In this document: positions 6,994 through 52,084 of the stretch, piece after piece
How the letters are laid out: each line of letters starts with the position of its first letter
Position numbering within the stretch: position 1 is the first letter of the stretch
DNA from: Escherichia coli
GTDB taxonomy: Bacteria > Pseudomonadota > Gammaproteobacteria > Enterobacterales > Enterobacteriaceae
Assembly (NCBI RefSeq): GCF_045037415.1
Contig: NZ_CP173438.1
Length of the DNA stretch: 64,000 nt
Direction: 5' to 3' (one strand)
The notes under the pieces: model-generated
Database searches by the model: none
What the model was told of the DNA's origin: nothing
What the model saw: the letters and a program-made list of their open reading frames with translations, nothing else
Translations under genes and position numbers: made by a program

Positions 6994-7023
6994 GCCGGAT
7001 GAAACGTTAAGTCGTCATCCGGC
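6994..7023. repeat. REP-like palindromic element downstream of parC
   Basis: GCCGGATGAAACGTTAAGTCGTCATCCGGC; the GCCGGATG...CATCCGGC arms resemble the REP consensus. Confidence 0.4.
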
Positions 7024-7186
7024 AGCGTATTCAATCCCCGGAAACGATAAAAATTCCCTTGAAACCGTTGTTTATTCATGCGTTGCGATTAACAATACGC
7101 TTTTCCAGAGAGCGGCTTTTAACAATGCCCTAACCTGATTTTCAGGTGACGTACAATGCCAGTCTCTCAGACCTTCAGAGGGTGTT

Positions 7187-7924
7187 ATGCTATATATCTT
7201 TCGTCTTATTATTACCGTGATTTACAGCATCTTAGTCTGTGTATTCGGCTCCATTTACTGCCTTTTCAGCCCGCGTAATCCGAAACATGTGGCCACCTTT
7301 GGGCATATGTTTGGTCGTCTTGCGCCGCTTTTCGGCCTGAAAGTGGAGTGCCGCAAACCTGCAGACGCTGAAAACTACGGCAATGCTATCTATATTGCTA
7401 ACCACCAGAACAATTATGACATGGTGACGGCATCGAACATTGTGCAGCCGCCGACAGTGACGGTAGGTAAAAAGAGTTTGCTGTGGATCCCCTTCTTCGG
7501 GCAGTTGTATTGGTTAACCGGCAACTTATTGATCGACAGAAACAATCGCACTAAAGCTCACGGCACTATTGCGGAAGTAGTGAATCACTTCAAAAAACGC
7601 CGTATTTCCATCTGGATGTTCCCGGAAGGAACCCGCAGCCGTGGTCGCGGCCTGCTGCCGTTCAAGACCGGGGCATTTCACGCGGCAATTGCGGCGGGCG
7701 TCCCGATTATACCCGTGTGCGTCTCTACAACTTCGAATAAGATTAATCTTAATCGGCTACACAACGGTCTGGTGATTGTCGAAATGCTGCCGCCAATTGA
7801 CGTCAGTCAGTATGGCAAAGATCAGGTTCGCGAGTTGGCTGCCCATTGTCGTTCGATAATGGAACAAAAAATCGCCGAGCTCGATAAAGAAGTCGCAGAA
7901 CGCGAAGCCGCCGGAAAAGTTTAA
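7187..7924 (+). CDS. plsC: 1-acyl-sn-glycerol-3-phosphate acyltransferase
   Basis: 245-aa ORF MLYIFRLIITVIYSILVCVF... with the acyltransferase HX4D motif (NHQNNYD) and FPEGTRS. Confidence 0.95.
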   Translation: MLYIFRLIITVIYSILVCVFGSIYCLFSPRNPKHVATFGHMFGRLAPLFGLKVECRKPADAENYGNAIYIANHQNNYDMVTASNIVQPPTVTVGKKSLLWIPFFGQLYWLTGNLLIDRNNRTKAHGTIAEVVNHFKKRRISIWMFPEGTRSRGRGLLPFKTGAFHAAIAAGVPIIPVCVSTTSNKINLNRLHNGLVIVEMLPPIDVSQYGKDQVRELAAHCRSIMEQKIAELDKEVAEREAAGKV

Positions 7925-7998
7925 GTCGGCAATCTGTATTTTTGCGGGGAACACTTTCCTGCACGGTATTACTTTAGCCAGTTTTACATGGAGCAAAT

Positions 7999-9411
7999 AT
8001 GTCACTCAGTCGGCGTCAGTTCATTCAGGCATCGGGGATTGCACTTTGTGCAGGCGCTGTTCCCCTGAAGGCCAGCGCAGCCGGGCAACAGCAACCGCTA
8101 CCCGTTCCGCCGCTGCTTGAATCTCGCCGTGGGCAACCGCTGTTTATGACTGTACAACGTGCGCACTGGTCATTTACGCCAGGGACACGCGCGTCGGTTT
8201 GGGGAATCAATGGTCGTTACCTGGGGCCGACTATCCGCGTCTGGAAGGGCGACGATGTTAAGCTTATTTACAGCAACCGCCTGACAGAAAATGTCTCAAT
8301 GACGGTGGCCGGGCTACAGGTACCTGGCCCGCTGATGGGCGGTCCGGCACGGATGATGTCGCCAAACGCTGACTGGGCACCCGTACTGCCCATTCGCCAG
8401 AACGCAGCTACTCTGTGGTATCACGCCAATACTCCCAACCGCACGGCTCAGCAGGTCTATAACGGCCTTGCCGGAATGTGGCTGGTGGAAGATGAAGTCA
8501 GTAAATCGCTGCCTATCCCCAACCATTATGGTGTGGATGATTTTCCTGTCATTATTCAGGATAAACGGCTGGATAACTTTGGTACGCCAGAATATAACGA
8601 ACCTGGAAGCGGCGGCTTTGTTGGCGATACGCTACTGGTTAACGGTGTACAAAGCCCGTACGTTGAAGTCTCGCGTGGCTGGGTGCGCTTGCGTCTGTTG
8701 AACGCGTCGAACTCTCGTCGCTATCAACTACAGATGAGCGATGGTCGCCCGTTACATGTGATTTCTGGCGATCAGGGATTCCTGCCCGCTCCTGTATCGG
8801 TGAAGCAACTTTCGCTGGCACCGGGCGAGCGTCGTGAGATTCTGGTGGATATGAGCAACGGTGATGAAGTGTCGATTACCTGTGGCGAAGCGGCGAGCAT
8901 TGTTGATCGTATTCGTGGCTTCTTTGAGCCATCCAGCATTCTGGTTTCTACGCTGGTGCTAACGCTGCGCCCAACCGGCCTTCTGCCGCTGGTCACAGAC
9001 AGTCTTCCGATGCGCTTGCTGCCAACTGAAATCATGGCCGGTTCGCCGATTCGAAGTCGTGATATCAGTCTGGGTGATGACCCGGGGATTAATGGGCAGT
9101 TGTGGGACGTCAACCGTATTGATGTTACTGCGCAGCAAGGAACGTGGGAACGCTGGACGGTGCGCGCGGACGAGCCGCAAGCGTTCCATATTGAAGGCGT
9201 GATGTTCCAGATCCGTAACGTGAATGGCGCGATGCCGTTCCCGGAAGACAGAGGCTGGAAAGATACCGTTTGGGTTGACGGACAAGTGGAGCTGCTTGTT
9301 TATTTCGGTCAGCCTTCCTGGGCGCACTTCCCGTTCTACTTCAACAGTCAGACGCTGGAAATGGCGGACCGTGGCTCGATTGGGCAACTGTTGGTCAATC
9401 CGGTACCGTAA
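7999..9411 (+). CDS. ftsP: Cell division protein FtsP (SufI), multicopper-oxidase fold, Tat-exported
   Basis: 470-aa ORF with twin-arginine signal MSLSRRQFIQASGIALCAGAVPLKASA. Confidence 0.95.
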   Translation: MSLSRRQFIQASGIALCAGAVPLKASAAGQQQPLPVPPLLESRRGQPLFMTVQRAHWSFTPGTRASVWGINGRYLGPTIRVWKGDDVKLIYSNRLTENVSMTVAGLQVPGPLMGGPARMMSPNADWAPVLPIRQNAATLWYHANTPNRTAQQVYNGLAGMWLVEDEVSKSLPIPNHYGVDDFPVIIQDKRLDNFGTPEYNEPGSGGFVGDTLLVNGVQSPYVEVSRGWVRLRLLNASNSRRYQLQMSDGRPLHVISGDQGFLPAPVSVKQLSLAPGERREILVDMSNGDEVSITCGEAASIVDRIRGFFEPSSILVSTLVLTLRPTGLLPLVTDSLPMRLLPTEIMAGSPIRSRDISLGDDPGINGQLWDVNRIDVTAQQGTWERWTVRADEPQAFHIEGVMFQIRNVNGAMPFPEDRGWKDTVWVDGQVELLVYFGQPSWAHFPFYFNSQTLEMADRGSIGQLLVNPVP

Positions 9412-9422
9412 TGGACCAATTC

Positions 9423-9448
9423 AATGCCCCACAGAGTGGTGGGGCATT
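9423..9448 (+). terminator. Stem-loop immediately downstream of ftsP (putative terminator)
   Basis: AATGCCCCAC-AGAGTG-GTGGGGCATT, perfect 10-bp inverted repeat 12 nt after the ftsP stop; no strong T-run follows. Confidence 0.5.
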
Positions 9449-9481
9449 GAAAATTACTCAGTATGCAGTCTTCATTGTGTA

Positions 9482-10786
9482 TCAGGTCGAAAATAATCCT
9501 GGCAGCATCAGACTAAGCTGCGGGAAATAACAAATAATTGCCATTACTACAAACAATGCCAGAAACATCGGCAGTAATGGTTTTATTGCCCTGTCGATAC
9601 TGACCTTACCAATGCTGCATCCCACAAACAGAATGGTGCCGACAGGTGGTGTGCAAAGGCCAATGGTTAAGTTGAAAACCATAATGATGCCGAAGTGAAT
9701 CGGATCAATCCCCAGATGCTGGGCGATCGGCAGGAAAATAGGTGTAAATATCAGGATCGCCGGCGTGATATCCATAAAGGTACCAACGATCAACAGAATG
9801 ATATTGATAATAAACAGAATGACCCATTTGTTATCCGAAACGCGGGTAATCAGTTCGTTGATCAACTCAGGAACATCAGCATTCGTCATGGCCCATGACA
9901 TCCCCATCGAGCAGCCTACCAGTAACAGAACAATTGAACTGGTTACTACCGAATCTAACAGAATATCATTGAGCTTCTTAAGAGTGATTTCCCGGTAAAT
10001 CATCGCCAGGGCTAAACTATAAATTACCGCAATTGCCGATGCTTCTGTAGGCGTAAATACCCCCGCGATAATACCGCCAATAATGATAAAAATAAGCATC
10101 AGGCTAGGAATTGATTCGCGGAATACCTGTAAAAACTGACGGTAATTAATGCGCTCGGCCACCGGATAATGGTGACGTCGGGCATAAAGTGCAGCTACAA
10201 ACATTAAGGCAACAGCGGTGAGGATGCCCGGCAGATATCCAGCTAAGAACAACGCAGCGACAGAAGTCCCGCCACTGGCAAGGGAATAAACAATCAACAC
10301 ATTGCTCGGTGGGATCATCAGGCCAATGGGGGCAGAGGCAATATTAACCGCTGCTGAAAACGCCGGATCATATCCCTCTTTTTCTTGCAGTGGTGACATA
10401 ATCCCACCTACCGCGGCGGCTGACGCAACGGCTGAACCTGAAATCGCACCAAACAGTGTATTCGCGAGGATATTACAATGAGCCAGTGAGCCAGGAAGAC
10501 GCCCAACTAATGCTTGCGCCAGGTTAACCAGTCGTCTGGCTATACCACCGGTATTCATAATGTTTCCGGCTAACACGAAGAAGGGAATGGCTAATAGCGT
10601 AAAGCCATCCAGCCCCACAGTCATCTTTTGCGAAATCACAGAAATGGCGGCATCGGGTGGTAAGGCAGTAATAATAGATAACAGCGAAGAAAGACCAATC
10701 GCAAAAGTAATTGGCACACCTATTGCCAGCATGACGGCAAAACTGCCAAATAAAATTAAGACGGGGTAGATATATTCAAAGTCCAT
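9482..10786 (-). CDS. TRAP transporter large permease (DctM family)
   Basis: Track ORF 9482..10828 starts at TTG; preferred start is ATG at 10786 (MDFEYIYPVLILFG...), preceded by GAGGG. Polytopic hydrophobic protein typical of DctM. Confidence 0.85.
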   Translation of the reverse strand: MDFEYIYPVLILFGSFAVMLAIGVPITFAIGLSSLLSIITALPPDAAISVISQKMTVGLDGFTLLAIPFFVLAGNIMNTGGIARRLVNLAQALVGRLPGSLAHCNILANTLFGAISGSAVASAAAVGGIMSPLQEKEGYDPAFSAAVNIASAPIGLMIPPSNVLIVYSLASGGTSVAALFLAGYLPGILTAVALMFVAALYARRHHYPVAERINYRQFLQVFRESIPSLMLIFIIIGGIIAGVFTPTEASAIAVIYSLALAMIYREITLKKLNDILLDSVVTSSIVLLLVGCSMGMSWAMTNADVPELINELITRVSDNKWVILFIINIILLIVGTFMDITPAILIFTPIFLPIAQHLGIDPIHFGIIMVFNLTIGLCTPPVGTILFVGCSIGKVSIDRAIKPLLPMFLALFVVMAIICYFPQLSLMLPGLFST

Positions 10787-10796
10787 ATTTCCCTCG

Positions 10797-11279
10797 TTAA
10801 TGAAAATTCCGTTTACGATAGTTGTCAATAATATTCATTACTGAATACCAGACCAGAATAAGCCCACTGACAGGCATAACCCAATATACTTTATCCATTG
10901 GCCATTTTAATACTGGAGAGATTTGTCCAACATGTTGTGCTTTTTCAACAACAATATTCCCGCCATAGATCATGAAAATAACCGCAAAGACCGTAATAAT
11001 AATTTGGATAAAACTGTCAAGCGTCAGAACAGATGCAGCCGGAAGTTTTTGAGCCAACAAATCAATGGCCAGATGTTTTTTTAACCCCGCAGTATATACA
11101 CCGCCAAGTAAAATCATCCACATAAATAAAATCTGGGTGAACTCATCAAGCACAGTGCTGGGAGCGTTAAAAATAAAACGTGCAATAACTTGCCAGGTTA
11201 CGCAGAACACCATAATGGCGAGAATAATGCAGCAACATCCGGCAAGGATCTTATTAAGAATATGAGTGAGTGTTCGCAT
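10797..11279 (-). CDS. TRAP transporter small permease (DctQ family)
   Basis: 160-aa, 4-TM-like protein immediately upstream of the large permease, the canonical Q-M order. Confidence 0.8.
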   Translation of the reverse strand: MRTLTHILNKILAGCCCIILAIMVFCVTWQVIARFIFNAPSTVLDEFTQILFMWMILLGGVYTAGLKKHLAIDLLAQKLPAASVLTLDSFIQIIITVFAVIFMIYGGNIVVEKAQHVGQISPVLKWPMDKVYWVMPVSGLILVWYSVMNIIDNYRKRNFH

Positions 11280-11320
11280 AAGTCTTCCATGAAAAGGCAG
11301 GAATTACCTGCCCATTAGGG

Positions 11321-12304
11321 TTACATACTTTCTACTAGCTCAAGGTTTTTGGCTGATTGTGCATCTTTCGCCTTGAATTCATCGTATAACGGTTTGACGC
11401 GTTCTTTGAAAGCGGATTTATCAACATCAACAACTGTTGCGTTCATCCCTTTCATTTTGTCGTAGGCTTCTTTTTCAGCCGCAGGCCAGATGACGTCCTT
11501 CATCTGCATCATTGACTCATCGGCTGCTTTTAATAATGCCGTGCGCTCTTTATCACCAAGTTTATTTAACACGTCGGTGCTGATAATTAACACATCAGGT
11601 ACCATGGTGTGTTCATCACGTGAATAGACTTTTGCGACTTCGGCGTGACGCATATCGGCATAGACAACGGTATTGTTCTCTCCGCCATCAACCACTCCTT
11701 GCTGAAGTGCGGTGTAGAGTTCGCCTTGCGCCATCGGGGTAGCGACACCACCGAGTGCTTTCATCATTGCAATGGCGCTGGGGCTTTGTTGAACCCTGAT
11801 TTTCATTCCCGCTAAATCTTCAGGTTTTGTAATCGGTTTATTGGAATAAAAACTTCTCGCACCGCCGTCATAGTACGTAATACCAACAAAACCTTTGCTT
11901 TCTGATGAATTAAGTATTTTTTTACCTAAATCACTTTGCAGAACACGATAATAGTGATCACGGTCGCGGAATAAGAACGGCAGACTGAAAAGGCTGTAAT
12001 CCGGAGCAAATGATTCTAGTGATGCAGCATTAACCTTAACCATCTGTAATGCACCGGAGTTCATTAATTCCAGTGATTCACGCTCATTACCTAATGTCGC
12101 ATTTGGGTAAATGCGAATAACTAATTCACCATTAGAATACTCTTTGGTTTTATCCGCTAAATAGCTTAATGCTTTATGGACAGCATGGCTTTTATCCTGA
12201 TTATGACTCAGTTTTAATGTTGTTTTTGCCAGTGTGGTATTAGATATTAATAAACAACTGGTTAACAGCATAAGCGATGCCGTCAGAGGACGAAGTGCTT
12301 TCAT
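11321..12304 (-). CDS. TRAP transporter substrate-binding protein (DctP family)
   Basis: 327-aa ORF with signal peptide MKALRPLTASLMLLTSCLLISNTTLA; DctP-like size and position ahead of the Q and M genes. Confidence 0.82.
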   Translation of the reverse strand: MKALRPLTASLMLLTSCLLISNTTLAKTTLKLSHNQDKSHAVHKALSYLADKTKEYSNGELVIRIYPNATLGNERESLELMNSGALQMVKVNAASLESFAPDYSLFSLPFLFRDRDHYYRVLQSDLGKKILNSSESKGFVGITYYDGGARSFYSNKPITKPEDLAGMKIRVQQSPSAIAMMKALGGVATPMAQGELYTALQQGVVDGGENNTVVYADMRHAEVAKVYSRDEHTMVPDVLIISTDVLNKLGDKERTALLKAADESMMQMKDVIWPAAEKEAYDKMKGMNATVVDVDKSAFKERVKPLYDEFKAKDAQSAKNLELVESM

Positions 12305-12376
12305 ATCCTGCTCCTGGTTAATATAACAGAAACGATAAATACAGCGCTTTTCTATCGTTATAATAAAAAATAGTGA

Positions 12377-13387
12377 TTAATTCTCTGCCAGATAATGGAA
12401 TATTCCTGCCGGAACCGGAATACCTTCCTGTTGGCATTTTTCTTTGTAGTGCATTTGCGGATCGTTCGGCGCTAACACTTTTTCGACACCAGGAGCCGGT
12501 TTAACGGCATGCAGCTCCGTGACCATTTTCGCCATAGTTTTTGCAAAAACAGGATTGCCGAGCTTTTTCGGATCGATGGCAATAACCAAACTTGCCAGCT
12601 TACGCATCTTGTCATAATCACCATACATGCGAACAATATGGTTGCCAAAATTCGCATTCATCAGCACGCCAGTCAGTGCATCAATAGCCAGTGCAATGCC
12701 TGAACCTTTGTGTTGGCCGAAAGGTAGCAGGTTTTCAATCTTATACGGATCAGTGGTGCCATAACCGTTTTTATCTATCGCCAGTCCTTCACCAATATGT
12801 TTTCCGGTTTCCTTTGCATGAAGTATTTTGCCGAAAGCCGTGGCACTGGTCGCCATATCAACAATCATCGGATGGCTGTTTTCCACCGGGAAACCAAAGG
12901 CGATGGGGTTAGTTCCCAAAAAGCGCTCGGCGCCGCCATGGGGAGCCACACAGGTATCGGTTTGCGTCATTACGATAGCAACCAACCCTTTGTTGGTGAT
13001 CATCTCTGCAAAATAAGATAACGCACCACAGTGAGACGTGTTTTTAACGCTAACAAAACCGAGACCCTCTTGCTGGGCCAGTTTAATAGCGTGCTCAGTG
13101 GCGCTAATTAATGCGGAATGCCCCATTCCGTCGTCAGAGTCGAGAATGGCCACTGACGGTGAAATTTGCTCAATGCTAAACTGCGGGGCTTTATTTAACC
13201 CTCCGGCAGCAAGGCGGGTGCAATAATGTTCGACACGCATAACACCATGTGAATGCACACCGGTAATATCGGCATGTACTAAAACATCTGTCACCTGTTG
13301 TGTGGTGTCGGTATCCAGCCCGGCGGTATGTAATTTGTGGTGCACCAGTGATTTTAAATTTTCTTCACTGACATAAACAGTTGTCAT
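12377..13387 (-). CDS. Ldh_2 family (malate/L-lactate/2,3-diketogulonate-type) NAD(P)H-dependent oxidoreductase
   Basis: 336-aa ORF with the Ldh_2 motifs SHGV.R, GTNPIAFG, VDMATSA, HKGSG; resembles YiaK/AllD-type enzymes. Confidence 0.75.
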   Translation of the reverse strand: MTTVYVSEENLKSLVHHKLHTAGLDTDTTQQVTDVLVHADITGVHSHGVMRVEHYCTRLAAGGLNKAPQFSIEQISPSVAILDSDDGMGHSALISATEHAIKLAQQEGLGFVSVKNTSHCGALSYFAEMITNKGLVAIVMTQTDTCVAPHGGAERFLGTNPIAFGFPVENSHPMIVDMATSATAFGKILHAKETGKHIGEGLAIDKNGYGTTDPYKIENLLPFGQHKGSGIALAIDALTGVLMNANFGNHIVRMYGDYDKMRKLASLVIAIDPKKLGNPVFAKTMAKMVTELHAVKPAPGVEKVLAPNDPQMHYKEKCQQEGIPVPAGIFHYLAEN

Positions 13388-13397
13388 ATTTGTTCCC

Positions 13398-14414
13398 TTA
13401 AAAAGTGATCACACCCTTGACCATATTTTTATTTTCTACAACGTTACGCTGGTAATCTTCGCCAACACTAAAGAAATTGAACGCCTGGTTTTTCATTAAA
13501 TTTTCGTGAATTTTATTGCTGCGCATCAGTTCAATCACCAACGCAAAATCTTCCCGTGTGGCATTGCGGCTGCTGAGTAACGTTGTCTCTTTTTTATGGA
13601 AGGTCGGATCGTCAATAACAAGTTCACCAATGTACAAACCGATGAAAACAATTTTGCCGCCATGACGAATAAGATTGACATCATGACTCATTGAAGCTTT
13701 ATTTCCCGTCGCATCCAGTACTACGCAAGCCAGTTCGCCTCCAAAGGCCTCACGAAGCGCGGCAATAAAATCTTCCTGTGTGGGATTGAAGGCATTAATC
13801 GCCAGATGATCCACAACGTGCTGGCGACGTTGACAGTCAATATCAGCAACAACAACATGTGCCCCTTTAGCCCGGGCGATGGCTGCGGTAGCCAGACCGA
13901 TTGGCCCAGCGCCAATCACCAGTACGTTTTGTTCAGCCTTGATCTCTGCCCGACGAACGGCATGTGCACCAATGGCGAAACATTCAACCAATGCTCCGGC
14001 ACTGTCGCTGACCTCGTCAGGGAGAGGCACAAGGTTGTCTTCACGTACCGCAAGGTACTCACTAAAACCCCCATCCTGATGCACGCCATACAGCGAAACA
14101 CGTTCGCAGCAGTTCGTTTTCTCTTCCCGACAGGCTGCGCACTCGCCACACGGAATGCATGGGATGACGGAATAGCGCTGGCCTGATTGTGCTGTTTGGC
14201 ACTGGCTGCCTCGCGAAACCGCTTCGGCGCATATTTCATGACCTAATACACGTGGGTAGCTAAAAAAAGGCTGTCTGCCGGCAAAAGCGTGAATATCAGT
14301 ACCACAAATACCCACAGCTTTTATTTTTAACAGCACTTCATTATCTGCTGGTGTGGGAATATCCTTTTCCACATATTCCATAACGCCAGGCTGCTGACAA
14401 ATTAATGTTTTCAT
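13398..14414 (-). CDS. Zinc-dependent medium-chain alcohol/polyol dehydrogenase
   Basis: 338-aa ORF with GHE and cysteine-cluster zinc motifs (CGTDIH, ...CGECAAC...) and Rossmann GAGPIG; start ATG overlaps the upstream stop (ATGA). Confidence 0.8.
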   Translation of the reverse strand: MKTLICQQPGVMEYVEKDIPTPADNEVLLKIKAVGICGTDIHAFAGRQPFFSYPRVLGHEICAEAVSRGSQCQTAQSGQRYSVIPCIPCGECAACREEKTNCCERVSLYGVHQDGGFSEYLAVREDNLVPLPDEVSDSAGALVECFAIGAHAVRRAEIKAEQNVLVIGAGPIGLATAAIARAKGAHVVVADIDCQRRQHVVDHLAINAFNPTQEDFIAALREAFGGELACVVLDATGNKASMSHDVNLIRHGGKIVFIGLYIGELVIDDPTFHKKETTLLSSRNATREDFALVIELMRSNKIHENLMKNQAFNFFSVGEDYQRNVVENKNMVKGVITF

Positions 14415-15883
14415 TTCTGCTCATCCGATAATAATTGGCTGATGGTGGCCTTGATGCCTTTGTTTTTTATATTTGCAAAGGCGATTTTTATTTCATTTAT
14501 AAATGGCTGATGGTTGCTTAAATCACCAAATATGGCGCTAAGGTGCAGTAATGCGAGCGCCTGTTGCCATGCGTCTTGTTGTTCCTTTATTAGCGCCTGA
14601 AATTGTTCATTCATTGGATCCGCGACAGACTGGCTTTTCTCAACAGCTTCAATGACATAATGCAACCAACCAGCAACGAGCAGTGACAGAACAGCATTGT
14701 TTTGTTTTTGCTGATGCAATTTCAGCCAGGGCGTCAGCGCACGCTGGGGAAGCTTTTGTGAACCGTCCATAGCGATTTGCCCGGTACGGTGTGCAACATT
14801 ACGGTTGCTAAAGCGTTCAATTAACAGGTCGGCGTATTCCTGGGCGTCGATATTTAAGTCTGGATTAAGTGTTCGGGCTTGTTCATTAATCATCAGTTGG
14901 CGGGTAATGGAACGAAAATCAGCGTCTTCCATGCATTGCCAGATAAATTCATAGCCAGCCAGTGAGCCGTTATAGGCCAGAAATGAATGGCCACCGTTTA
15001 ACATGCGTAACTTCATCTCTTCATAAGGCTGAACATTGCTGACAAACATCGCGCCTGCTTTATCCCATTGTGGTCGCCCATGCACAAAATTATCTTCAAT
15101 CACCCACTGACGAAATGATTCGCAGACGATCCCGCAGGGATCGGCATAACCGGTTTTAGTTTCCAGTAAGGCGAATTGCGATTCGGTCATTGCCGGAACA
15201 ATGCGATCGACCATCGTGCCTGGAAATGAGACATTTTCTTCGATCCACTGAGCCAGGGGCTGGTCCAGTTGTCGGGCAAAACCGAGAACGGCATTTCGCG
15301 TCAGATGCCCATTGTCTGGCAAGTTGTCGCAGGAGAGCACGCTAAAAGCGGCGAGCCCTGCCGCTTTACGTTGTTGCAAAGCACAGACGATCAAGCCAAT
15401 AGCCGACTGAGGCGCATCCGGGTTTTGTAGATCGTGTTTGATTAATCCATTGGTGAGATCAAGCGATCGCGTTTGCGAATCGAGACAATAGCCTTTCTCG
15501 GTGATGGTTAATGAAACGATTTTTACCTGAGGTTCAGTCAATTTCTGGATTGCTGCGGCAATGCCATCCACGGGGGTATGAATACCGCCAGTTACCGAAC
15601 GCACAAGGCGTGAGGTAGATTGCGATGCAGATGTTTCCACAACCGAAAACAGCCCATTTTGCGCATTTAAGTTTTCGATCAGTTGAGCATCACCAAACAG
15701 GTTGATCTCAAAGATCCCCCAGTGGGTGTCAGAAAGCTGATTAGTGAGATCCGTGTAGACAGCCTGGTGTCCGCGATGAAAAGCGCCAAAACCAATATGG
15801 ACAATATCTGCCTGTAACCCGCCCCGAGGCCAGGTGGTTACCTGATCATAGTGGGCGGCATCGATACTTTCGTTCCCTGACAT
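14411..15883 (-). CDS. Mannitol-dehydrogenase-family oxidoreductase (UxuB/UxaB-like mannonate/fructuronate-type)
   Basis: Track ORF 14411..15919 starts at TTG; preferred start is ATG at 15883 (MSGNES...) preceded by AGGAG. Strongly UxuB-like blocks: GFGAFHRGHQ, SLTITEKGY, SCDNLPDNG, TMVDRIVP, KLRMLNGGHS, QIAMDGSQKLPQR. Confidence 0.85.
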   Translation of the reverse strand: MSGNESIDAAHYDQVTTWPRGGLQADIVHIGFGAFHRGHQAVYTDLTNQLSDTHWGIFEINLFGDAQLIENLNAQNGLFSVVETSASQSTSRLVRSVTGGIHTPVDGIAAAIQKLTEPQVKIVSLTITEKGYCLDSQTRSLDLTNGLIKHDLQNPDAPQSAIGLIVCALQQRKAAGLAAFSVLSCDNLPDNGHLTRNAVLGFARQLDQPLAQWIEENVSFPGTMVDRIVPAMTESQFALLETKTGYADPCGIVCESFRQWVIEDNFVHGRPQWDKAGAMFVSNVQPYEEMKLRMLNGGHSFLAYNGSLAGYEFIWQCMEDADFRSITRQLMINEQARTLNPDLNIDAQEYADLLIERFSNRNVAHRTGQIAMDGSQKLPQRALTPWLKLHQQKQNNAVLSLLVAGWLHYVIEAVEKSQSVADPMNEQFQALIKEQQDAWQQALALLHLSAIFGDLSNHQPFINEIKIAFANIKNKGIKATISQLLSDEQK

Positions 15884-16205
15884 TATGCTCTTACTCCTGG
15901 TGGCTTGTGTGTATACCAATTTACATAATTCATTAGACCAAAAACAGAGAGATGCATCACGCTTGCAGAGAAAGGTAAAAGTACGAAACAGAACAACAAG
16001 GCGTTATTTATATCTGTATCAATGAGTTATATGAATAAAATGAAAGGAAAGTTTTTTAGAGGTCAGTTTTTAGGATAATTGCCGCTAATCTAAGATATCT
16101 GATGATAGTCGATTTATTAGACCAATTAAAAAGAGAGCGTGTACCAGTGGAGGGCGGAAGGCAGAGCCGGCGTTATTTTTTCCGCCAGCTCTGGACTAAT
16201 GAAGG

Positions 16206-16955
16206 TTAACGAGCGAAGAAAAAGTCATCAAAATCGCTGATGGAAGCGTCTTGTTTGAAGATTTTGATCAGTTCATTTTTGCTGTTTTCCAGATGTCTCC
16301 AGGACGCTTCCCTGGCGAGCTCTGAATCTTTCTGTTGCAGAGCCAGGAAAATAGCCCGGTGATCTTCCAGCCATTGCAGACGCAAATGCTTTTCATGCAG
16401 GTACTTGTAGTTAAGTTTCTTCCAGCGGGGGTTTTCTGTACGAACTGCCCGCCATAATTCAGCAGCTTGTTTGATGAGTACCCGATTTTGCGTCGCTTCG
16501 GCAATAATGCTATGAAATCGGTGATCCAGGTCTTCAAATTTATCACTTTCCGCAGCGATGGCTTTTTCCTGTAATCCAATGATTTTCTTCAACTCTTGTA
16601 ACTCGTTAAAGCTGATCTGGCTGGCAGCAAAACCGGTAATATTGCTCTCAATTACCTGACGTGCCTGTAACAGTTCAAACGGGCCAATTTCTGAATAGGG
16701 CATTAATGATTTCTGGTTGAGCTTATCGGTGGAGTCGACAAAGAAAATCCCTGACCCTTGCTTCACATTCAATACGCCTTTCAGTTCCAGCATAATGATG
16801 GCTTCACGAATGGTAGTTCGGCTGGTATTAAACCGCTCGCTCAGTTCACGTTCTGAAGGTAAGCGTTCTCCGGCCTTAAATACGCCTGAATACAGCAGCT
16901 CTTCAATCTGTAGACCAATATCGTAATAGCGGCGCTTTGTAATAACCTGTTCCAT
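16206..16955 (-). CDS. GntR/FadR-family transcriptional regulator
   Basis: 249-aa ORF with N-terminal GntR helix-turn-helix (LPSERELSERFNTSRTTIREAI) and an FCD-like C-terminal domain; sits upstream of the TRAP/dehydrogenase operon on the same strand. Confidence 0.8.
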   Translation of the reverse strand: MEQVITKRRYYDIGLQIEELLYSGVFKAGERLPSERELSERFNTSRTTIREAIIMLELKGVLNVKQGSGIFFVDSTDKLNQKSLMPYSEIGPFELLQARQVIESNITGFAASQISFNELQELKKIIGLQEKAIAAESDKFEDLDHRFHSIIAEATQNRVLIKQAAELWRAVRTENPRWKKLNYKYLHEKHLRLQWLEDHRAIFLALQQKDSELAREASWRHLENSKNELIKIFKQDASISDFDDFFFAR

Positions 16956-17206
16956 ACCTTGCCTTACTGTGGGTGTCCTCGGATAGCCGATCGACGTGCA
17001 ATATGATTTGAACGTTGCTGAGCGGCATAAATAGTAGCGGCAGTTGCCACGATACCGCCAGCCTTAAATGTGCTTGCCCAAGTCGGGCAGTGAAAAACCT
17101 CACCAGGGTATTTCGCCACCGTTCATCAACATCACTTCATTTCCGCGCGTGATACAGCGTATAATCCCCGGCCTTTGATTATTTTTTTACCATTTCTGGA
17201 AGCAAA

Positions 17207-19426
17207 ATGAGCTCTATCTCCCTGATCCAACCGGATCGCGACCTGTTCTCCTGGCCGCAGTACTGGGCCGCCTGTTTTGGACCGGCACCGTTTTTGCCGA
17301 TGTCACGTGAAGAGATGGATCAACTAGGCTGGGATAGCTGCGACATCATTTTGGTTACTGGCGACGCGTATGTCGATCACCCAAGCTTCGGGATGGCGAT
17401 TTGCGGTCGTATGCTGGAAGCGCAGGGCTTTCGCGTCGGGATCATCGCCCAGCCAGACTGGAGCAGTAAAGACGACTTTATGCGTCTGGGTAAACCGAAT
17501 CTGTTTTTCGGTGTTACTGCTGGCAACATGGACTCGATGATCAACCGCTATACCGCCGATCGCCGTTTACGTCATGACGATGCCTACACGCCAGATAATG
17601 TCGCGGGTAAGCGTCCGGATCGCGCCACACTGGTTTATACCCAACGTTGTAAAGAGGCGTGGAAAGATGTGCCGGTGATCCTCGGCGGTATTGAGGCCAG
17701 CCTGCGCCGTACCGCGCACTATGATTACTGGTCGGATACCGTGCGCCGTTCCGTGCTGGTGGATTCGAAAGCCGACATGCTGATGTTTGGTAACGGTGAG
17801 CGTCCGCTGGTGGAAGTGGCGCACCGTCTGGCGATGGGCGAGCCGATTAGTGAAATCCGCGATGTGCGTAATACCGCGATTATCGTAAAAGAGGCGTTGC
17901 CAGGCTGGAGCGGTGTGGATTCCACCCGTCTTGATACCCCTGGGAAAATCGACCCAATCCCGCATCCGTATGGCGAAGATTTGCCGTGCGCGGATAACAA
18001 ACCGGTAGCTCCGAAAAAGCAGGAAGCCAAATCTGTAACCGTGCAGCCACCACGCCCGAAACCGTGGGAAAAAACCTACGTGTTGCTGCCTTCTTTCGAG
18101 AAAGTGAAGGGCGATAAAGTGCTGTACGCCCATGCTTCGCGCATTCTGCACCACGAAACTAACCCAGGCTGCGCCCGCGCATTGATGCAAAAACATGGCG
18201 ACCGCTATGTATGGATCAACCCGCCTGCTATTCCGCTTTCTACCGAAGAGATGGATAGCGTCTTTGCGCTGCCGTACAAGCGCGTGCCGCATCCGGCTTA
18301 CGGTAATGCCCGAATTCCGGCTTACGAAATGATTCGTTTCTCGGTCAACATTATGCGTGGCTGCTTTGGCGGCTGCTCTTTCTGTTCTATTACCGAGCAC
18401 GAAGGGCGCATTATTCAGAGCCGTTCCGAAGATTCGATTATTAATGAGATCGAAGCGATCCGCGACACTGTTCCAGGTTTTACGGGCGTGATTTCCGATC
18501 TCGGTGGGCCTACTGCCAACATGTATATGTTGCGCTGCAAATCGCCACGCGCTGAGCAAACCTGCCGTCGTTTGTCGTGCGTTTATCCGGATATTTGTTC
18601 GCACATGGACACTAATCATGAACCGACCATCAATCTCTATCGCCGTGCGCGTGATCTGAAAGGCATTAAAAAGATCCTGATTGCCTCTGGTGTGCGTTAT
18701 GACATCGCTGTAGAAGATCCGCGCTATATCAAAGAGCTGGCGACCCATCACGTTGGCGGTTATCTGAAGATTGCCCCGGAACATACCGAAGAAGGGCCGT
18801 TATCGAAGATGATGAAGCCGGGCATGGGCAGCTATGACCGCTTTAAAGAGCTGTTCGATACTTACTCGAAACAGGCAGGTAAAGAACAGTATCTGATCCC
18901 GTATTTCATCTCCGCGCACCCGGGTACGCGTGATGAAGATATGGTGAATCTGGCGCTATGGCTGAAAAAGCATCGCTTCCGCCTCGACCAGGTGCAGAAC
19001 TTCTATCCGTCGCCGCTGGCTAACTCGACCACCATGTATTACACCGGCAAAAACCCGCTGGCGAAGATTGGTTATAAGAGTGAAGACGTCTTCGTGCCGA
19101 AGGGCGACAAACAGCGTCGTTTGCATAAAGCGTTGTTGCGTTACCACGATCCGGCAAACTGGCCGTTAATCCGCCAGGCGCTGGAAGCGATGGGCAAAAA
19201 GCATCTGATTGGCAGCCGTCGCGATTGCTTAGTGCCTGCGCCAACTATTGAAGAGATGCGTGAGGCTCGTCGCCAGAACCGCAATACCCGTCCGGCGTTG
19301 ACTAAACATACGCCGATGGCGACCCAGCGTCAGACGCCTGCTACGGCAAAAAAAGCGTCGTCTACGCAATCTCGCCTGCAGAATGCTGGTGCGAAGAAAC
19401 GCCCTAAAGCGGCGGTTGGACGTTAA
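17207..19426 (+). CDS. ygiQ: YgiQ-family radical SAM protein (UPF0313)
   Basis: 739-aa [23 protein letters not shown]... with radical-SAM cysteine motif (CFGGCSFC) and a basic C-terminal tail. Confidence 0.92.
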
Positions 19427-19431
19427 AAAAT

Positions 19432-19466
19432 ATCCCCGGTAACAGAATGCTGCCGGGGATTTTTTT
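19432..19466. terminator. Bidirectional rho-independent terminator between convergent ygiQ and yqhH
   Basis: ATCCCCGGTAACAGAATGCTGCCGGGGAT followed by TTTTTTT on the + strand and preceded by an A-run, so it also serves the minus-strand yqhH. Confidence 0.8.
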
Positions 19467-19467
19467 A

Positions 19468-19725
19468 TCATTCTGCGTACATACGCAAGCAGCGCAGGCA
19501 GTCGAAATAGTCCTGTGCATCAAGACGCGTATTGGCTCTGTTAGCTTCGGATTTGGCAGCATAGATTTGTGGGCGTAATGCTTTCATATCCTGCTCAAGC
19601 CGGGCGATTTTGGCATTTAATGTTTGCACATTGCTCGCCAGCTGATTGATCTTTTGCTCATTGACGCAGCCACTGAGCAAGCAGGTTGCCAGAACAACAG
19701 CTCCCACGGTGAAAATCGTTTTCAT
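19468..19725 (-). CDS. yqhH: Lpp-like outer-membrane lipoprotein YqhH
   Basis: 85-aa ORF with lipobox (LLSGC) and coiled-coil Lpp-like body. Confidence 0.85.
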
Positions 19726-19775
19726 ATAGTGTTCCCTTTTATTTATTGTTCCGGCTAATTGTTATTTAATTCAGC

Positions 19776-20702
19776 TCATTGTTTTAATCTGGCGGCGGTT
19801 TTTGCCTCAATCTGCTTAAGTAGGCTGCCGCTGTTCGGGCGGATAAAATCAGCGATTTCCCACTTACCTTCGCGCCGCTGTAAAATCAGTTCTTGCTCTT
19901 CGTTGTTGCCATTGGTCAGCGTAAAGCGAACATGAATGCGGGCGGAATCGGTGGTTTTCTCCAGGACTCGAATTTCATCAACGCGTGAAAATAACGACTC
20001 TTCGCCAAAACAGATCGGATTGTCGTAAATAAATTGCCGTTCTATTGGCATATCTTCATCGGGATTGTTGGCCGTCTTGAAGGTGGTTTTATAGAAGGCA
20101 TTGACCGCCTGGCGGTAAGAGTCGGAAACCACCCACGTCCACGGCCAGCTATAATCAGCAATATGTTCAAAGAGTTCGGCAACAAAGGCTTCCGGCTGTT
20201 CTTTTTGCAACGAAGCTATAGCGGCCAGTGTTTTTTCATTCTCGCTATTAACCGCTTGTAAGACGCTGCCATGATTGCTGACAATATCGTCAATGACCCA
20301 ACGACCATTTTCCGCCACCATTTTCAGTGTCTGCGAGGTCTTTTCTTTATCGTCTTGAAAGATACGAAAGCGCACAATGGCATCGGCATGATCGGCGTCA
20401 GTTTGGGTTATCGCTACGCTTTCTAACACCAGATCGCCAAAATCCTGACAATCACAAACCGGATCATAATCCAGCCAGCCAATATTGCCCGGCAGCGTAA
20501 GATTGTCGTTCAGGGTAAGCGCCTGTTGAATACGCGCAGAAGTTATCGCTCGCTCTCCGGTTTCACCAAAATAAGGGGCAGTGGCATCTGATTTATAGTT
20601 CTGATAAATATGCCGGACTGTTTGTTCTACGGTCTGTGAGGGGGGCTGTGCGTGTACGGTAAAACTTGCCAGGGCTGCTAAAAACAGAAGTATTATTTTC
20701 AT
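19776..20702 (-). CDS. yqhG: Periplasmic DUF3828-type protein YqhG
   Basis: 308-aa ORF with signal peptide MKIILLFLAALASFTVHA; matches my recollection of YqhG. Confidence 0.82.
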   Translation of the reverse strand: MKIILLFLAALASFTVHAQPPSQTVEQTVRHIYQNYKSDATAPYFGETGERAITSARIQQALTLNDNLTLPGNIGWLDYDPVCDCQDFGDLVLESVAITQTDADHADAIVRFRIFQDDKEKTSQTLKMVAENGRWVIDDIVSNHGSVLQAVNSENEKTLAAIASLQKEQPEAFVAELFEHIADYSWPWTWVVSDSYRQAVNAFYKTTFKTANNPDEDMPIERQFIYDNPICFGEESLFSRVDEIRVLEKTTDSARIHVRFTLTNGNNEEQELILQRREGKWEIADFIRPNSGSLLKQIEAKTAARLKQ

Positions 20703-44856: not shown

Positions 44857-45630
44857 ATGGACGCACTACAAACACAAACTGTTAATAGTACAACCGCGCC
44901 GCAGCCCAACTACATTCCGGGGCTGATTGCGGTGGTCGGGTGTGATGGCACCGGTAAATCCACACTGACCACCGACCTCGTGAAATCGCTGCAACAACAC
45001 TGGCAAACCGAGCGGCGCTATCTGGGGCTGCTCTCGGGCGAAGACGGCGACAAAATCAAACGATTGCCGTTGGTTGGCGTCTGGCTCGAAAGGCGACTGG
45101 CGGCCAAATCATCGAAAACCCAAAGCATGAAAACCCAAAGCATGAAAACCAAATCTCCAGCGCTATGGGCGGCGGTGATTATGTACTGCTTCTCGCTGCG
45201 AAGAATGGCGAATCTACGCAAGGTTCAGCGACTGGCGCAAAGTGGCGTTCTGGTGGTCAGCGATCGCTTCCCGCAGGCTGAAATTTCGGGCTTTTATTAT
45301 GACGGACCGGGGATCGGCGTCGAACGTGCGACCGGGAAAATCAGCATGTTTCTGGCGCAGCGCGAACGGCGTTTATACCAAAAAATGGCGCAATACCGTC
45401 CTGAATTAATCATTCGTTTGGGGATTGATATTGATACTGCCATCTCCCGCAAGCCTGACCATGACTATGCCGAGCTGCAGGACAAAATCGGCGTCATGTC
45501 GACGATTGGCTATAACGGCACAAAAATTCTTGAGATTGATTCCAGAGCGCCCTACAGCGAAGTGCTGGAACAGGCACAGAAGGCGGTTTCTCTGGTTGCC
45601 ATCGTTTCTGACCGCCGAAGTTTAACTTAA
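44857..45630 (+). CDS. yghR: P-loop kinase-like protein YghR (carries an internal 5-aa tandem repeat)
   Basis: 257-aa ORF MDALQTQTVNSTTAPQPNYIPGLIAVVGCDGTGKST...; SDRFPQ and SRKPDH motifs. Confidence 0.85.
   Translation: MDALQTQTVNSTTAPQPNYIPGLIAVVGCDGTGKSTLTTDLVKSLQQHWQTERRYLGLLSGEDGDKIKRLPLVGVWLERRLAAKSSKTQSMKTQSMKTKSPALWAAVIMYCFSLRRMANLRKVQRLAQSGVLVVSDRFPQAEISGFYYDGPGIGVERATGKISMFLAQRERRLYQKMAQYRPELIIRLGIDIDTAISRKPDHDYAELQDKIGVMSTIGYNGTKILEIDSRAPYSEVLEQAQKAVSLVAIVSDRRSLT
45115..45150 (+). repeat. In-frame 15-bp tandem duplication inside yghR
   Basis: AAAACCCAAAGCATG occurs twice in tandem, followed by a partial third copy (AAAACC), encoding ...KTQSMKTQSMKTKS... Confidence 0.9.
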
Positions 45631-45675
45631 GGCTGGCGGGATACTTTTTACTATCAACGATAAGGTCAGGCTGAA

Positions 45676-47025
45676 TTGGCGGGTTTTAACATCAAACATT
45701 GGTTTGCAGATGGCGCGTTTCGCACCATTATTCGCAATAGCGCCTGGTTAGGCTCCAGTAATGTCGTGAGCGCTTTACTGGGTCTGTTGGCGCTCTCGTG
45801 TGCCGGTAAAGGGATGACGCCCGCCATGTTTGGCGTACTGGTGATTGTACAATCGTACGCCAAGTCGATCAGCGATTTTATTAAGTTTCAGATATGGCAG
45901 CTGGTGGTTCAGTACGGAACACCAGCATTAACCAACAATAATCCGCAGCAATTCCGCAATGTCGTCTCATTTTCCTTCTCGCTGGATATCGTCAGCGGCG
46001 CGGTGGCGATTGTCGGCGGCATTGCCTTACTCCCTTTTCTTTCCCATTCATTAGGTCTGGATGACCAAAGCTTTTGGCTGGCAGCGCTGTATTGCACGCT
46101 CATTCCTTCAATGGCTTCCTCCACGCCGACCGGCATTCTGCGTGCGGTAGATCGCTTCGATCTAATTGCTGTACAGCAAGCGACGAAACCTTTTCTGCGC
46201 GCAGCGGGGAGCGTCGTAGCCTGGTATTTTGACTTTGGTTTTGCGGGTTTTGTTATTGCCTGGTACGTGTCGAATCTGGTTGGCGGCACCATGTACTGGT
46301 GGTTTGCCGCGCGCGAATTACGCCGCAGAAATATCCATAACGCCTTCAAATTGAATCTGTTTGAGTCTGCCCGACACATTAAAGGCGCGTGGAGTTTTGT
46401 CTGGTCAACCAACATTGCCCACTCCATCTGGTCGGCGCGTAACTCGTGCAGCACAGTGCTGGTGGGGATCGTGTTAGGACCCGCTGCCGCCGGGTTATTT
46501 AAAATCGCCATGACATTCTTCGACGCCGCCGGAACGCCAGCGGGTTTACTGGGCAAAAGTTTTTACCCAGAGGTGATGCGTTTAGATCCGCGCACCACCA
46601 GACCGTGGTTGTTAGGCGTGAAGTCAGGTTTACTGGCGGGCGGAATTGGTATTCTGGTGGCGCTCGCGGTGTTGATCGTCGGCAAGCCGCTTATTTCGCT
46701 GGTGTTTGGCGTTAAGTATCTCGAAGCGTATGACCTGATTCAGGTGATGCTGGGCGCAATTGTGATTTCGATGCTGGGCTTCCCACAGGAGTCATTGCTA
46801 TTGATGGCGGGAAAACAGCGCGCTTTTCTCGTGGCGCAAACCATCGCCTCAATCGGCTACATCGTATTGCTGTTCATGTTCTGTCATCTGTTTGGCGTGC
46901 TGGGAGCAGCGTTTGCTTATTTCGGTGGGCAATGTCTGGATGTGGTGCTCTCGTTAATTCCGACCTTAAAGGCATTTTTTCAGCGCCATTCCTTGCTTTA
47001 TAACGCAGCCGGAGAGAAATCCTGA
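45676..47025 (+). CDS. yghQ: MOP-superfamily (Wzx-like) polytopic membrane protein YghQ; start uncertain
   Basis: 449-aa track ORF beginning at TTG 45676 with AAGG 9 nt upstream; highly hydrophobic multi-TM protein. Stop overlaps the start of the next gene (TGATG). Confidence 0.75.
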   Translation: MAGFNIKHWFADGAFRTIIRNSAWLGSSNVVSALLGLLALSCAGKGMTPAMFGVLVIVQSYAKSISDFIKFQIWQLVVQYGTPALTNNNPQQFRNVVSFSFSLDIVSGAVAIVGGIALLPFLSHSLGLDDQSFWLAALYCTLIPSMASSTPTGILRAVDRFDLIAVQQATKPFLRAAGSVVAWYFDFGFAGFVIAWYVSNLVGGTMYWWFAARELRRRNIHNAFKLNLFESARHIKGAWSFVWSTNIAHSIWSARNSCSTVLVGIVLGPAAAGLFKIAMTFFDAAGTPAGLLGKSFYPEVMRLDPRTTRPWLLGVKSGLLAGGIGILVALAVLIVGKPLISLVFGVKYLEAYDLIQVMLGAIVISMLGFPQESLLLMAGKQRAFLVAQTIASIGYIVLLFMFCHLFGVLGAAFAYFGGQCLDVVLSLIPTLKAFFQRHSLLYNAAGEKS

Positions 47026-47849: not shown

Positions 47850-47857
47850 CCGGAGCA

Positions 47858-48421: not shown

Positions 48422-48451
48422 AAAATTCAAAGGATTGAGGGTGTTAGTGAG

Positions 48452-50598: not shown

Positions 50599-50632
50599 AC
50601 CCGCCGTGGCGCAACACCACAGCGGGCTCACA
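50599..50632. terminator. Stem-loop between the convergent LptG-like gene and the AOS-like gene
   Basis: CCCGCCGTGG-CGCAACA-CCACAGCGGG, imperfect 10-bp inverted repeat filling the 34-bp gap between two convergent stop codons. Confidence 0.45.
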
Positions 50633-52053: not shown

Positions 52054-52084
52054 AGAAACGTTAACACACCTTTAAACAAGACAA

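Follow-up and report, generated by a model that had tools for sequence, protein, structure and literature searches.

In Escherichia coli K-12 MG1655, ygiQ and ftsP are neighbours, as an initial reading of the DNA from its letters alone (the sequence-only reading) had stated, with a spacer of 110 bp. In the 64,000-nucleotide stretch of E. coli DNA analysed here (the window; contig NZ_CP173438.1 of assembly GCF_045037415.1), the ftsP-ygiQ spacer holds a 7744-bp block of seven genes, which raises the question of what these genes do and whether they were acquired recently, as that reading had implied. On balance, we favour the view that they form an old chromosomal operon by which a sugar acid of the hexuronate type is scavenged and converted. 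The region itself is known to be associated with phylogroup B2, catalogued in 2026 as "GR 21, ygiQ..ftsP" and functionally uncharacterised (PMC12928451), and its transporter has a characterised orthologue. What is new here favours a block that was ancestral and later lost over one that was gained, and ties the three dehydrogenase genes of the block to loci encoding an anhydrogalactonate cycloisomerase.

The block and its transporter

Comparison by BLAST with an island-free strain placed the junctions at 9412/9413 and 17156/17157, such that the block (9413-17156, minus strand) stands in place of 59 bp in K-12-type E. coli; these junctions, the K-12 spacer and population counts (see below) delimit it, and the ~7.7 kb of the sequence-only reading was accurate. 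Between the flanking genes ftsP (7999-9411, plus strand) and ygiQ (17207-19426, plus strand), all seven open reading frames (ORFs), the regulator included, lay on the minus strand where that reading had put them. The ORF scan agreed with the Prokaryotic Genome Annotation Pipeline (PGAP) annotation of E. coli Ecol_AZ146, which is identical over the 10.9 kb compared. In order of transcription, a GntR/FadR-family (FCD) regulator gene (16206-16955) is followed, after a 322-bp spacer, by genes for a long-chain mannitol-dehydrogenase-family enzyme (mdh; 14411-15883), a zinc-dependent polyol/aldonate dehydrogenase (Zn-ADH; 13398-14414), an AllD/YjmC-like oxidoreductase of the Ldh_2 family (12377-13387), and dctP (11321-12304), dctQ (10797-11279) and dctM (9482-10786). 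The six genes from mdh to dctM are separated by gaps of -4 to 72 bp and are therefore most simply one operon headed by mdh, with the regulator transcribed separately. An AGGAG ribosome-binding site lies directly 5' of the mdh ATG.

[quoted passage not shown] DctM (434 aa from the PGAP start) scored 513.9 bits with TIGR00786 (cut-off 268), and DctP scored 239.6 bits with NF037995 (cut-off 50) and 220.1 bits with TIGR00787 (cut-off 175); dctQ was assigned by PGAP and by the Pfam DctQ family at orthologous loci. The N-terminal signal sequence of DctP ends with TLA before KTT.

DctP is 83-84% identical to a 327-aa Salmonella protein of equal length, encoded at the same chromosomal site, and the dctM product is 88% identical to its Salmonella counterpart there. 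The primers with which Haneda et al. (PMC3022708) cloned stm3169 fit the N- and C-termini of the 327-aa protein, which is therefore STM3169. Judged by identity, length and location, E. coli DctP is the STM3169 orthologue. STM3169 binds D-glucuronate with a KD of 0.17-0.25 µM (Herman 2020, PMC7660916). In a fluorescence assay, D-glucuronate alone gave a signal, and D-galacturonate, D-gluconate and D-galactose gave none; D-galactonate elicited a thermal shift that was unconfirmed by fluorescence or thermophoresis (PMC7660916). Seven ligand contacts derived from modelling of STM3169 (N35, Q36, E74, R150, R170, N210 and D237; PMC7660916) are all identical in E. coli DctP, so that the carboxylate-binding arginine of TRAP SBPs is present as R170 (and R150) at the STM3169 positions. 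Given that TRAP SBPs are mostly isofunctional above ~60% identity (criterion of the Enzyme Function Initiative, PMC5788505), an identity of 83-84% suggests that E. coli DctP should bind D-glucuronate as well. The best relatives of DctP in the Protein Data Bank (PDB) include the glucuronate binders 4N91, 4MHF and 4N15 (E ~1e-58). Hexuronate binders as a group matched with E = 1e-58 to 1e-67, the ligands of most of these matches resting on three entries named in PMC7660916, and the L-gulonate binder 4PBQ matched with E = 2e-28.

Among the closest known systems is STM3169-STM3171 of Salmonella Typhimurium, an orthologous dctPQM set at the same ygiQ-ftsP site with TTGGT boxes (see below) kept upstream. 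Unlike the E. coli block, the Salmonella site is devoid of the regulator and the three dehydrogenase genes, and a paralogous regulator and dehydrogenase set are located between speA and speB. Induction of stm3169 depends on ppGpp and SsrB, and without the gene Salmonella grows less well in macrophage-like cells (Haneda 2010, PMC3022708); control by SsrB and ppGpp is shown in Salmonella only. As loss of the transporter counterpart impairs Salmonella growth in macrophages, the island is a plausible host-niche fitness factor for glucuronate scavenging.

Dehydrogenases, regulator and a recurrent gene triad

The Zn-ADH is 56% identical to K-12 LgoD (YjjN), an L-galactonate 5-dehydrogenase, and 31% identical to RspB; its best NCBIfam match, NF007489, reached 199 bits, below the cut-off of 376 and hence below LgoD equivalog level. 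The mdh-family enzyme, a member of PF01232, is 49% identical to K-12 UxuB and 50% to YdfI, scored 510.1 bits with the UxuB model NF011611 (cut-off 603) and matched PDB entry 4im7 with E = 2e-140. The Ldh_2 enzyme scored best with the AllD model PRK15025 (340.8 bits, cut-off 356) and reached 318.8 bits with TIGR03175 (cut-off 496); it matched the AllD structure 4h8a with E = 4e-77 and reached 126 bits with the YiaK model. By these scores, all three dehydrogenases are paralogues of known enzymes. Two roles for the Ldh_2 enzyme were considered and rejected: that of AllD (ureidoglycolate dehydrogenase), because of the score below cut-off and the absence of an allantoin context, and that of a malate dehydrogenase, because of below-cut-off scores, an unfitting context and the observation that duplication of STM3081 did not improve growth of Salmonella on malate. 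To our knowledge, characterised Ldh_2 enzymes act at the carbon beside the carboxylate. A pair of Ldh_2 and Zn-ADH genes, yjmC-yjmD, is also found in the hexuronate operon of Bacillus subtilis, and we know of no function assigned to either gene.

The three dehydrogenase genes recur as a triad elsewhere. Homologues of the island Ldh_2 enzyme are widespread at 67-82% identity (74-82% in the triad clusters of other taxa), and each of the triad loci that we inspected (Salmonella, Klebsiella, Leclercia, Budvicia, Vibrio, Agarivorans and Marinomonas) had the order mdh, Zn-ADH, Ldh_2. In Salmonella, the triad lies between speA and speB (STM3080-84), together with genes for a regulator 79% identical to that of the island, a DUF386 (YhcH-family) protein and an alpha/beta hydrolase; undermethylated GATC sites upstream of STM3083 are mentioned in a 2026 preprint. 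The triad adjoins gyrB in Klebsiella quasipneumoniae, Leclercia and a rare E. coli type, and occupies another site in Budvicia. These gyrB and Budvicia loci additionally carry genes for a GntR regulator, a DgoT-like major facilitator superfamily (MFS) transporter and an enolase-superfamily protein; the K. quasipneumoniae regulator, the one compared, is likewise 79% identical to the island's. The gyrB-type locus of E. coli was found in one of 5426 complete genomes, strain RM9088 from a crow.

In the two marine agar-type loci, those of Vibrio agarivorans and Agarivorans, the triad is divergent from the same enolase-superfamily gene and genes for 2-keto-3-deoxygluconate (KDG) kinase as well as 2-keto-3-deoxy-6-phosphogluconate (KDPG) aldolase, and in Agarivorans it is embedded in an agarase locus with an aldehyde dehydrogenase gene. 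In Marinomonas algicola, the triad is fused to an aldehyde dehydrogenase; among solved structures, the latter is closest to 6J75 (E = 1e-247), which we take to be a 3,6-anhydro-L-galactose (AHG) dehydrogenase. A Rhodobacteraceae locus contains the Zn-ADH and Ldh_2 genes only, accompanied by TRAP genes and by those for DUF386, KduI and a kinase of the PfkB type. [quoted passage not shown] EJY3 (VejACI, 5XD7). The orthologue in the non-marine Enterobacterales E. coli RM9088, K. quasipneumoniae, Leclercia and Budvicia is 78-79% identical to the Vibrio protein.

The product of the cycloisomerase, 2-keto-3-deoxy-L-galactonate (L-KDGal), differs from KDG only at C5. L-gulonate, L-galactonate and L-KDGal have a common L-threo tail at C4/C5; D-mannonate, D-altronate and KDG have a common D-erythro tail. 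From these tails, the enzyme families and the cycloisomerase context, we infer that the LgoD-like and UxuB-like enzymes could act as a C5-inverting pair for L-series sugar acids. In a 2014 scheme cited by PMC5943477, C5 of L-KDGal is oxidised and then reduced again to give KDG, and according to a 2024 review, the bacterial fate of L-KDGal is still to be worked out (PMC11219438). In the literature, we found no functional data for STM3080-84 or the VEJY3 genes. We tentatively propose, as a possibility rather than an expectation, that the triad is the enterobacterial form of a widespread module converting L-KDGal and other L-threo sugar acids to KDG or D-mannonate. If so, the triad would supply the steps after the cycloisomerase in bacterial catabolism of AHG, a constituent of agar, and in B2 E. 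coli and Salmonella it would share a regulon with a glucuronate TRAP transporter implicated in macrophage survival.

The AHG loci of Vibrio sp. EJY3 and Agarivorans hold AHG dehydrogenase, AHGA cycloisomerase, KDG kinase and KDPG aldolase genes, and resemble the E. coli island in the same-order triad (60-78% identical) beside the cycloisomerase gene. Compared to these loci, the island lacks the cycloisomerase, aldehyde dehydrogenase and agarase genes, and contains a glucuronate-type TRAP instead of an MFS transporter. The Ldh_2 and Zn-ADH pair recurs in both hexuronate and agar-utilisation loci, and the genetically tractable host E. coli offers a direct way to assign functions to the triad and to this pair.

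The regulator is a UxuR/ExuR paralogue, 38% identical to UxuR. It scored 192.7 bits with the UxuR model (cut-off 442) and 184.6 bits with the ExuR model (cut-off 396), which places it outside the hexuronate repressor equivalogs as far as model scores indicate, and the regulators encoded with the triad in Salmonella and Klebsiella share 79% identity with it. Just upstream of mdh, two tandem TTGGTMTA boxes 22 bp apart (15912-15941, minus strand) form a candidate operator. The tandem arrangement is unique in the window, was matched zero times in shuffled sequences and keeps its register in each taxon that has the island. The same arrangement lies upstream of STM3083 in Salmonella and of the triad in K. 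quasipneumoniae; upstream of Salmonella stm3169, it is present twice. A second copy of the TTGGTCTAAT box (16112-16136, minus strand; repeat family D2) lies just downstream of the regulator gene, near its stop codon, where paired boxes are present in E. albertii, E. whittamii and Klebsiella spallanzanii. The full UxuR/ExuR palindrome AAATTGGTATACCAATTT had no match in the window with up to three mismatches; half-site-like TTGGT boxes were the only resemblance. These boxes are similar to the left half of palindromes upstream of K-12 uxuA (AAATTGGTCAACCATT, TGGTTAACCAATTT), which are presumably UxuR/ExuR operators. The tandem boxes may thus represent the repressor operator of the island regulator, and the Salmonella TRAP operon and the distant triad may form one regulon.

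Proposed function and competing routes

We suggest the following course of events for a hexuronate-scavenging operon. The UxuR-like GntR/FCD repressor probably binds the tandem TTGGT boxes, which overlap the promoter of the six-gene operon, and would be released by a pathway intermediate. Periplasmic DctP would capture D-glucuronate with high affinity, as shown for its orthologue STM3169, and DctQM would import the ligand at the expense of an ion gradient. The LgoD-like Zn-ADH could then oxidise the L-configured C5 hydroxyl of an L-threo sugar acid, candidate substrates being L-gulonate, L-galactonate and 2-keto-3-deoxy-L-galactonate, and the UxuB-like enzyme could re-reduce the 5-keto intermediate to the D configuration, yielding D-mannonate, D-altronate or KDG. 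The core enzymes UxuA/UxaA, KdgK and Eda would complete the pathway, and the Ldh_2 enzyme presumably carries out a redox step at C2, the carbon beside the carboxylate. Glucuronate might be connected to the triad in three ways: core UxaC could convert it to fructuronate, in which case only the UxuB-like enzyme would be used; it could be reduced to L-gulonate, on a bypass route; or the transporter might carry another ligand too.

Several points weigh against this proposal. The Zn-ADH/mdh pair cannot act directly on D-glucuronate because that compound has no terminal CH2OH, and no glucuronate reductase was identified. The Ldh_2 step is unexplained by the model. B2 strains already have ExuT, UxaC, UxuB and UxuA, which blurs the added value of the island. 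The KD for D-glucuronate is that of the Salmonella protein, the E. coli island proteins being known from their sequences, and the STM3169 panel comprised six compounds, without L-gulonate, L-galactonate, fructuronate or KDG-type ligands (PMC7660916). As the dehydrogenase scores fall below curated equivalog cut-offs, these enzymes are treated as paralogues whose specificities are extrapolated. Furthermore, the proposed operator is derived from conservation, the cycloisomerase is tied in through guilt by association, and in E. coli the island itself has no cycloisomerase gene.

Among the alternatives, an L-gulonate/L-galactonate operon of the Haemophilus GulPQM-GulD-UxuB type fares best, albeit at a low probability. 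Here, the TRAP transporter would import the L-aldonate itself, the Zn-ADH would produce fructuronate or tagaturonate, and the mdh-family enzyme would produce D-mannonate or D-altronate. The Haemophilus system likewise comprises a TRAP transporter, a zinc-dependent L-aldonate 5-dehydrogenase, a fructuronate reductase and a UxuR-type regulator, and both it and the E. coli island would feed into UxuA, KdgK and Eda (PMC5788505). Indeed, the Zn-ADH and UxuB-like pair is the enzyme set proven in H. influenzae to convert L-gulonate via D-fructuronate to D-mannonate (PMC5788505), the island Zn-ADH has its 56% identity to LgoD, and L-aldonates were outside the STM3169 ligand panel. However, the SBPs belong to different clades: that of the island is far from 4PBQ and much nearer to the hexuronate binders (see above), and its orthologue binds D-glucuronate at 0.2 µM with contact residues that are intact in E. 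coli. Moreover, the island has an extra Ldh_2 enzyme, for which such a pathway has no need, and lacks uxuA, kdgK and eda. The K-12 systems LgoR-LgoT-LgoD (YjjM, YjjL, YjjN) and RspAB/YdfI also channel L-series aldonates into the hexuronate pathway, but they differ from the island in using an MFS rather than a TRAP transporter and in having no Ldh_2 partner.

We consider it rather improbable that the island encodes an isomerase-independent glucuronate route, in which the Ldh_2 enzyme or a core aldo-keto reductase reduces C1 to give L-gulonate, the Zn-ADH oxidises C5 to give D-fructuronate, and the mdh-family enzyme reduces this to D-mannonate. Such a bypass would give the glucuronate-binding SBP and each of the three dehydrogenases a place along a single linear route, the enzyme families suit the chemistry of its second and third steps, and the triad comes with a DUF386 (sugar-anomerase-like) gene in both Salmonella and the Rhodobacteraceae locus. 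Against it, the Ldh_2 chemistry known to us concerns the carbon beside the carboxylate rather than the distal aldehyde, the route would be redundant with UxaC, and it leaves the position of the triad beside an anhydrogalactonate cycloisomerase gene in other taxa unexplained.

Less credence still is due to a 2-keto- or 2,3-diketo-L-gulonate-type route, as in ascorbate or ketogluconate breakdown, with the Ldh_2 enzyme forming L-gulonate by reduction of the 2-keto group and the Zn-ADH and mdh-family enzymes converting it to D-mannonate. Each enzyme would then perform chemistry typical of its family. YiaK, the 2,3-diketo-L-gulonate reductase encoded with the YiaMNO TRAP transporter, is an Ldh_2 enzyme, and the yia operon also holds a DUF386-family gene, yiaL, a parallel to the DUF386 genes found with the triad in two other taxa. 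In addition, dkgA, annotated as a 2,5-didehydrogluconate reductase gene, lies 1.5 kb from the island; it is, however, a core gene that island-free strains also possess. The island Ldh_2 enzyme resembles AllD, not YiaK (341 vs 126 bits), the island SBP is not YiaO-like, and scores for YiaN and YiaM were weak. The hexuronate-scavenging operon remains our preferred reading. The hexuronates and L-gulonate guessed as substrates by the sequence-only reading are reasonable, although that reading missed the orthology of the transporter to the characterised D-glucuronate system STM3169.

Distribution, age and edges of the block

At least 80% of the block was found in 1201 of 5426 complete E. coli genomes (~22%), the remainder having the flanks only. 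In genomes sampled across the ~1200 carriers, the block was 97.8-100% identical, with all seven ORFs intact. Carriers recognised by strain name were all B2 (UTI89, an ST131 strain, clone D i14 and an APEC O1:K1:H7 strain), an assignment that follows from these names and not from phylogroup typing. CFT073 and LF82 are further B2 carriers, and GR 21 is common to B2 reference strains of avian pathogenic (APEC), neonatal meningitis (NMEC), uropathogenic (UPEC) and adherent-invasive (AIEC) E. coli, MG1655 being without it (PMC12928451). The block thereby sets B2-type (extraintestinal pathogenic, adherent-invasive) E. coli apart from K-12-type strains. E. coli AREA_505 harbours IS1B in place of the Zn-ADH gene, with the other six genes intact, and represents a natural knock-out.

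A scan with one genome per species revealed at least four further genomes in which the seven genes lie between ygiQ and ftsP in unchanged order. This form was present in E. albertii, E. whittamii, K. spallanzanii and a divergent GTDB representative labelled E. coli SCPM-O-B-8794, and it recurs in Pseudocitrobacter cyperus, where two additional ORFs adjoin ygiQ. Among the matches listed, there was no island for E. fergusonii, E. marmotae or E. ruysiae. In Salmonella enterica, the order is ygiQ, a 487-bp spacer, dctP, dctQ, dctM, ftsP, plsC and parC, and a single 5.2-kb alignment of 76% identity connects E. coli and Salmonella from dctP through the dctM-ftsP spacer into plsC. While BLAST (word size 7) detected no similarity of the Salmonella ygiQ-dctP spacer to the island, Smith-Waterman alignment matched the 487-bp spacer from end to end to the regulator-mdh spacer of E. 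coli (score 54; shuffles 25.5 ± 3.9, maximum 42). Because this spacer aligns with the island promoter region, the Salmonella locus looks like a deletion derivative of the seven-gene form in which the promoter region survives and the genes for the regulator and the three dehydrogenases are gone.

Within Escherichia, synonymous divergence (dS) of the island genes was 0.17-0.59, compared to 0.26-0.54 for parC, plsC, ftsP and ygiQ; between genera, synonymous sites were saturated. Recent transfer would be expected to make the divergence of the island much lower than, or incongruent with, that of the flanking core genes, and no such pattern was seen. Relative to E. whittamii and the GTDB E. coli representative, the ratio of nonsynonymous to synonymous divergence (dN/dS) of the seven island genes was ~0.04-0.16. 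Since site and gene order are shared across lineages and dS matches that of the flanks, ancestral presence and loss explain these data better than gain. The simplest history would be that the block is old at this site, was present in a common ancestor and was subsequently lost toward most E. coli phylogroups.

The base composition of the block is distinct. Its GC content is 45.3%, vs 51.8% in the rest of the window, and mean GC content at third codon positions (GC3) was 0.452 over the six island genes other than dctQ, which was shorter than the ORF length cut-off, vs 0.574 (sd 0.052) over 38 further genes of the window (Mann-Whitney p = 6e-6). The most AT-rich island genes are dctP (GC3 0.38) and dctQ (0.37); the sequence-only reading had described the transporter genes as AT-richer than the flanking core genes. 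Low GC3 is kept in the Escherichia and Klebsiella copies; in Salmonella, dctPQM have a host-like GC3 of 0.58-0.62. The low GC content is compatible with a much older foreign origin, for which it gives no date.

The block shows none of the features of a mobile genomic island, i.e. an integrase or transposase gene, a tRNA gene or attachment site, or direct repeats. As noted in the sequence-only reading for the edges, the annotation of the block contained no integrase, transposase or insertion sequence (IS) element, and a tRNA scan of the whole window was negative; a repeat search found no direct or inverted repeats at the island edges. An Rfam scan of 7000-20000 returned nothing, and a scan for consensus promoters and terminators did no better than on shuffled sequences.

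The empty site is less simple than a joined pair of flanks. About 30 of its 59 bp are weakly similar to the ygiQ-proximal spacer of carriers, Klebsiella and Salmonella, such that homology on the ygiQ side probably continues ~30 bp into the block beyond the BLAST junction. Its left half is a different ftsP terminator hairpin, with no counterpart in the alignment to the island or to other species' spacers. This mixed alignment means that the edges alone show neither a simple insertion nor a simple deletion.

We assign little probability to the view, implied by the sequence-only reading, that the block reached the ftsP-ygiQ spacer in the B2 lineage by recent horizontal transfer. Its low GC and GC3 relative to the flanks, its presence and absence within one species, and an empty site that is not simply the joined island flanks could be taken in favour. 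These are outweighed by the same locus and order in E. albertii, E. whittamii, the divergent E. coli, K. spallanzanii and Pseudocitrobacter, and partly in Salmonella, by dS values equal to those of flanking core genes, by the lack of mobility genes, tRNA and repeats, and by the contiguity of the dctM-ftsP spacer with Salmonella in the 5.2-kb alignment. What stands of that view is a compositionally atypical accessory module that takes up and catabolises a sugar acid, has a UxuR-like regulator and is free of mobility genes; its recent acquisition is not supported. An AT-rich, strain-variable block hence need not be a recent acquisition, and loss explains the variability within E. coli most simply. 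That the block is a decaying, non-functional remnant, as the IS1 copy in place of one Zn-ADH gene and its absence from most E. coli might suggest, is highly improbable in view of seven intact ORFs conserved in the sampled carriers, dN/dS well below 1, and conserved operator boxes and ribosome-binding sites.

A hairpin with a 13-bp stem (9420-9451; -25 kcal/mol, z = -3.6 vs shuffles) lies between ftsP and dctM, which converge on it, and is probably a bidirectional terminator. Within the ftsP-dctM spacer (9412-9481), the hairpin of B2 E. coli (CAATGCCCCAC...) is unlike that of all other taxa compared, which have a common stem of the type GGGCCTGA...TCAGGCCC; island-free E. coli have a third hairpin, ACTCGCCC..., at the ftsP junction. 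Terminators at this junction appear to have turned over repeatedly.

Elsewhere in the window, mqsR-mqsA is gone, the ygiS-ygiV spacer being ~108 bp (about 2950-2840); K-12 has mqsA beyond ygiS, presumably accompanied by mqsR. A second, unrelated accessory TRAP island is located between rplI and ytfB in E. coli EC96, with IS1 adjacent. It encodes an FAD-dependent oxidoreductase, a CoA-transferase, an enoyl-CoA hydratase, a TetR regulator and an SBP 56% identical to the DctP described here, and its SBP gene had a weak 79% match in ~1370 of the 5426 E. coli genomes. Finally, an accessory-looking cluster at ~44857-54684 in the window, beside yghS/yghT and followed by IS1A at ~54906-55603, contains genes for a serine palmitoyltransferase (spt), an acyl carrier protein, a fatty acyl-AMP ligase, an NAD-dependent epimerase/dehydratase, extra LptF and LptG paralogues, a YtfJ-family protein, a 'lipopolysaccharide biosynthesis protein' and two hypothetical proteins; sphingolipid-type genes of this kind are unusual in E. 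coli.

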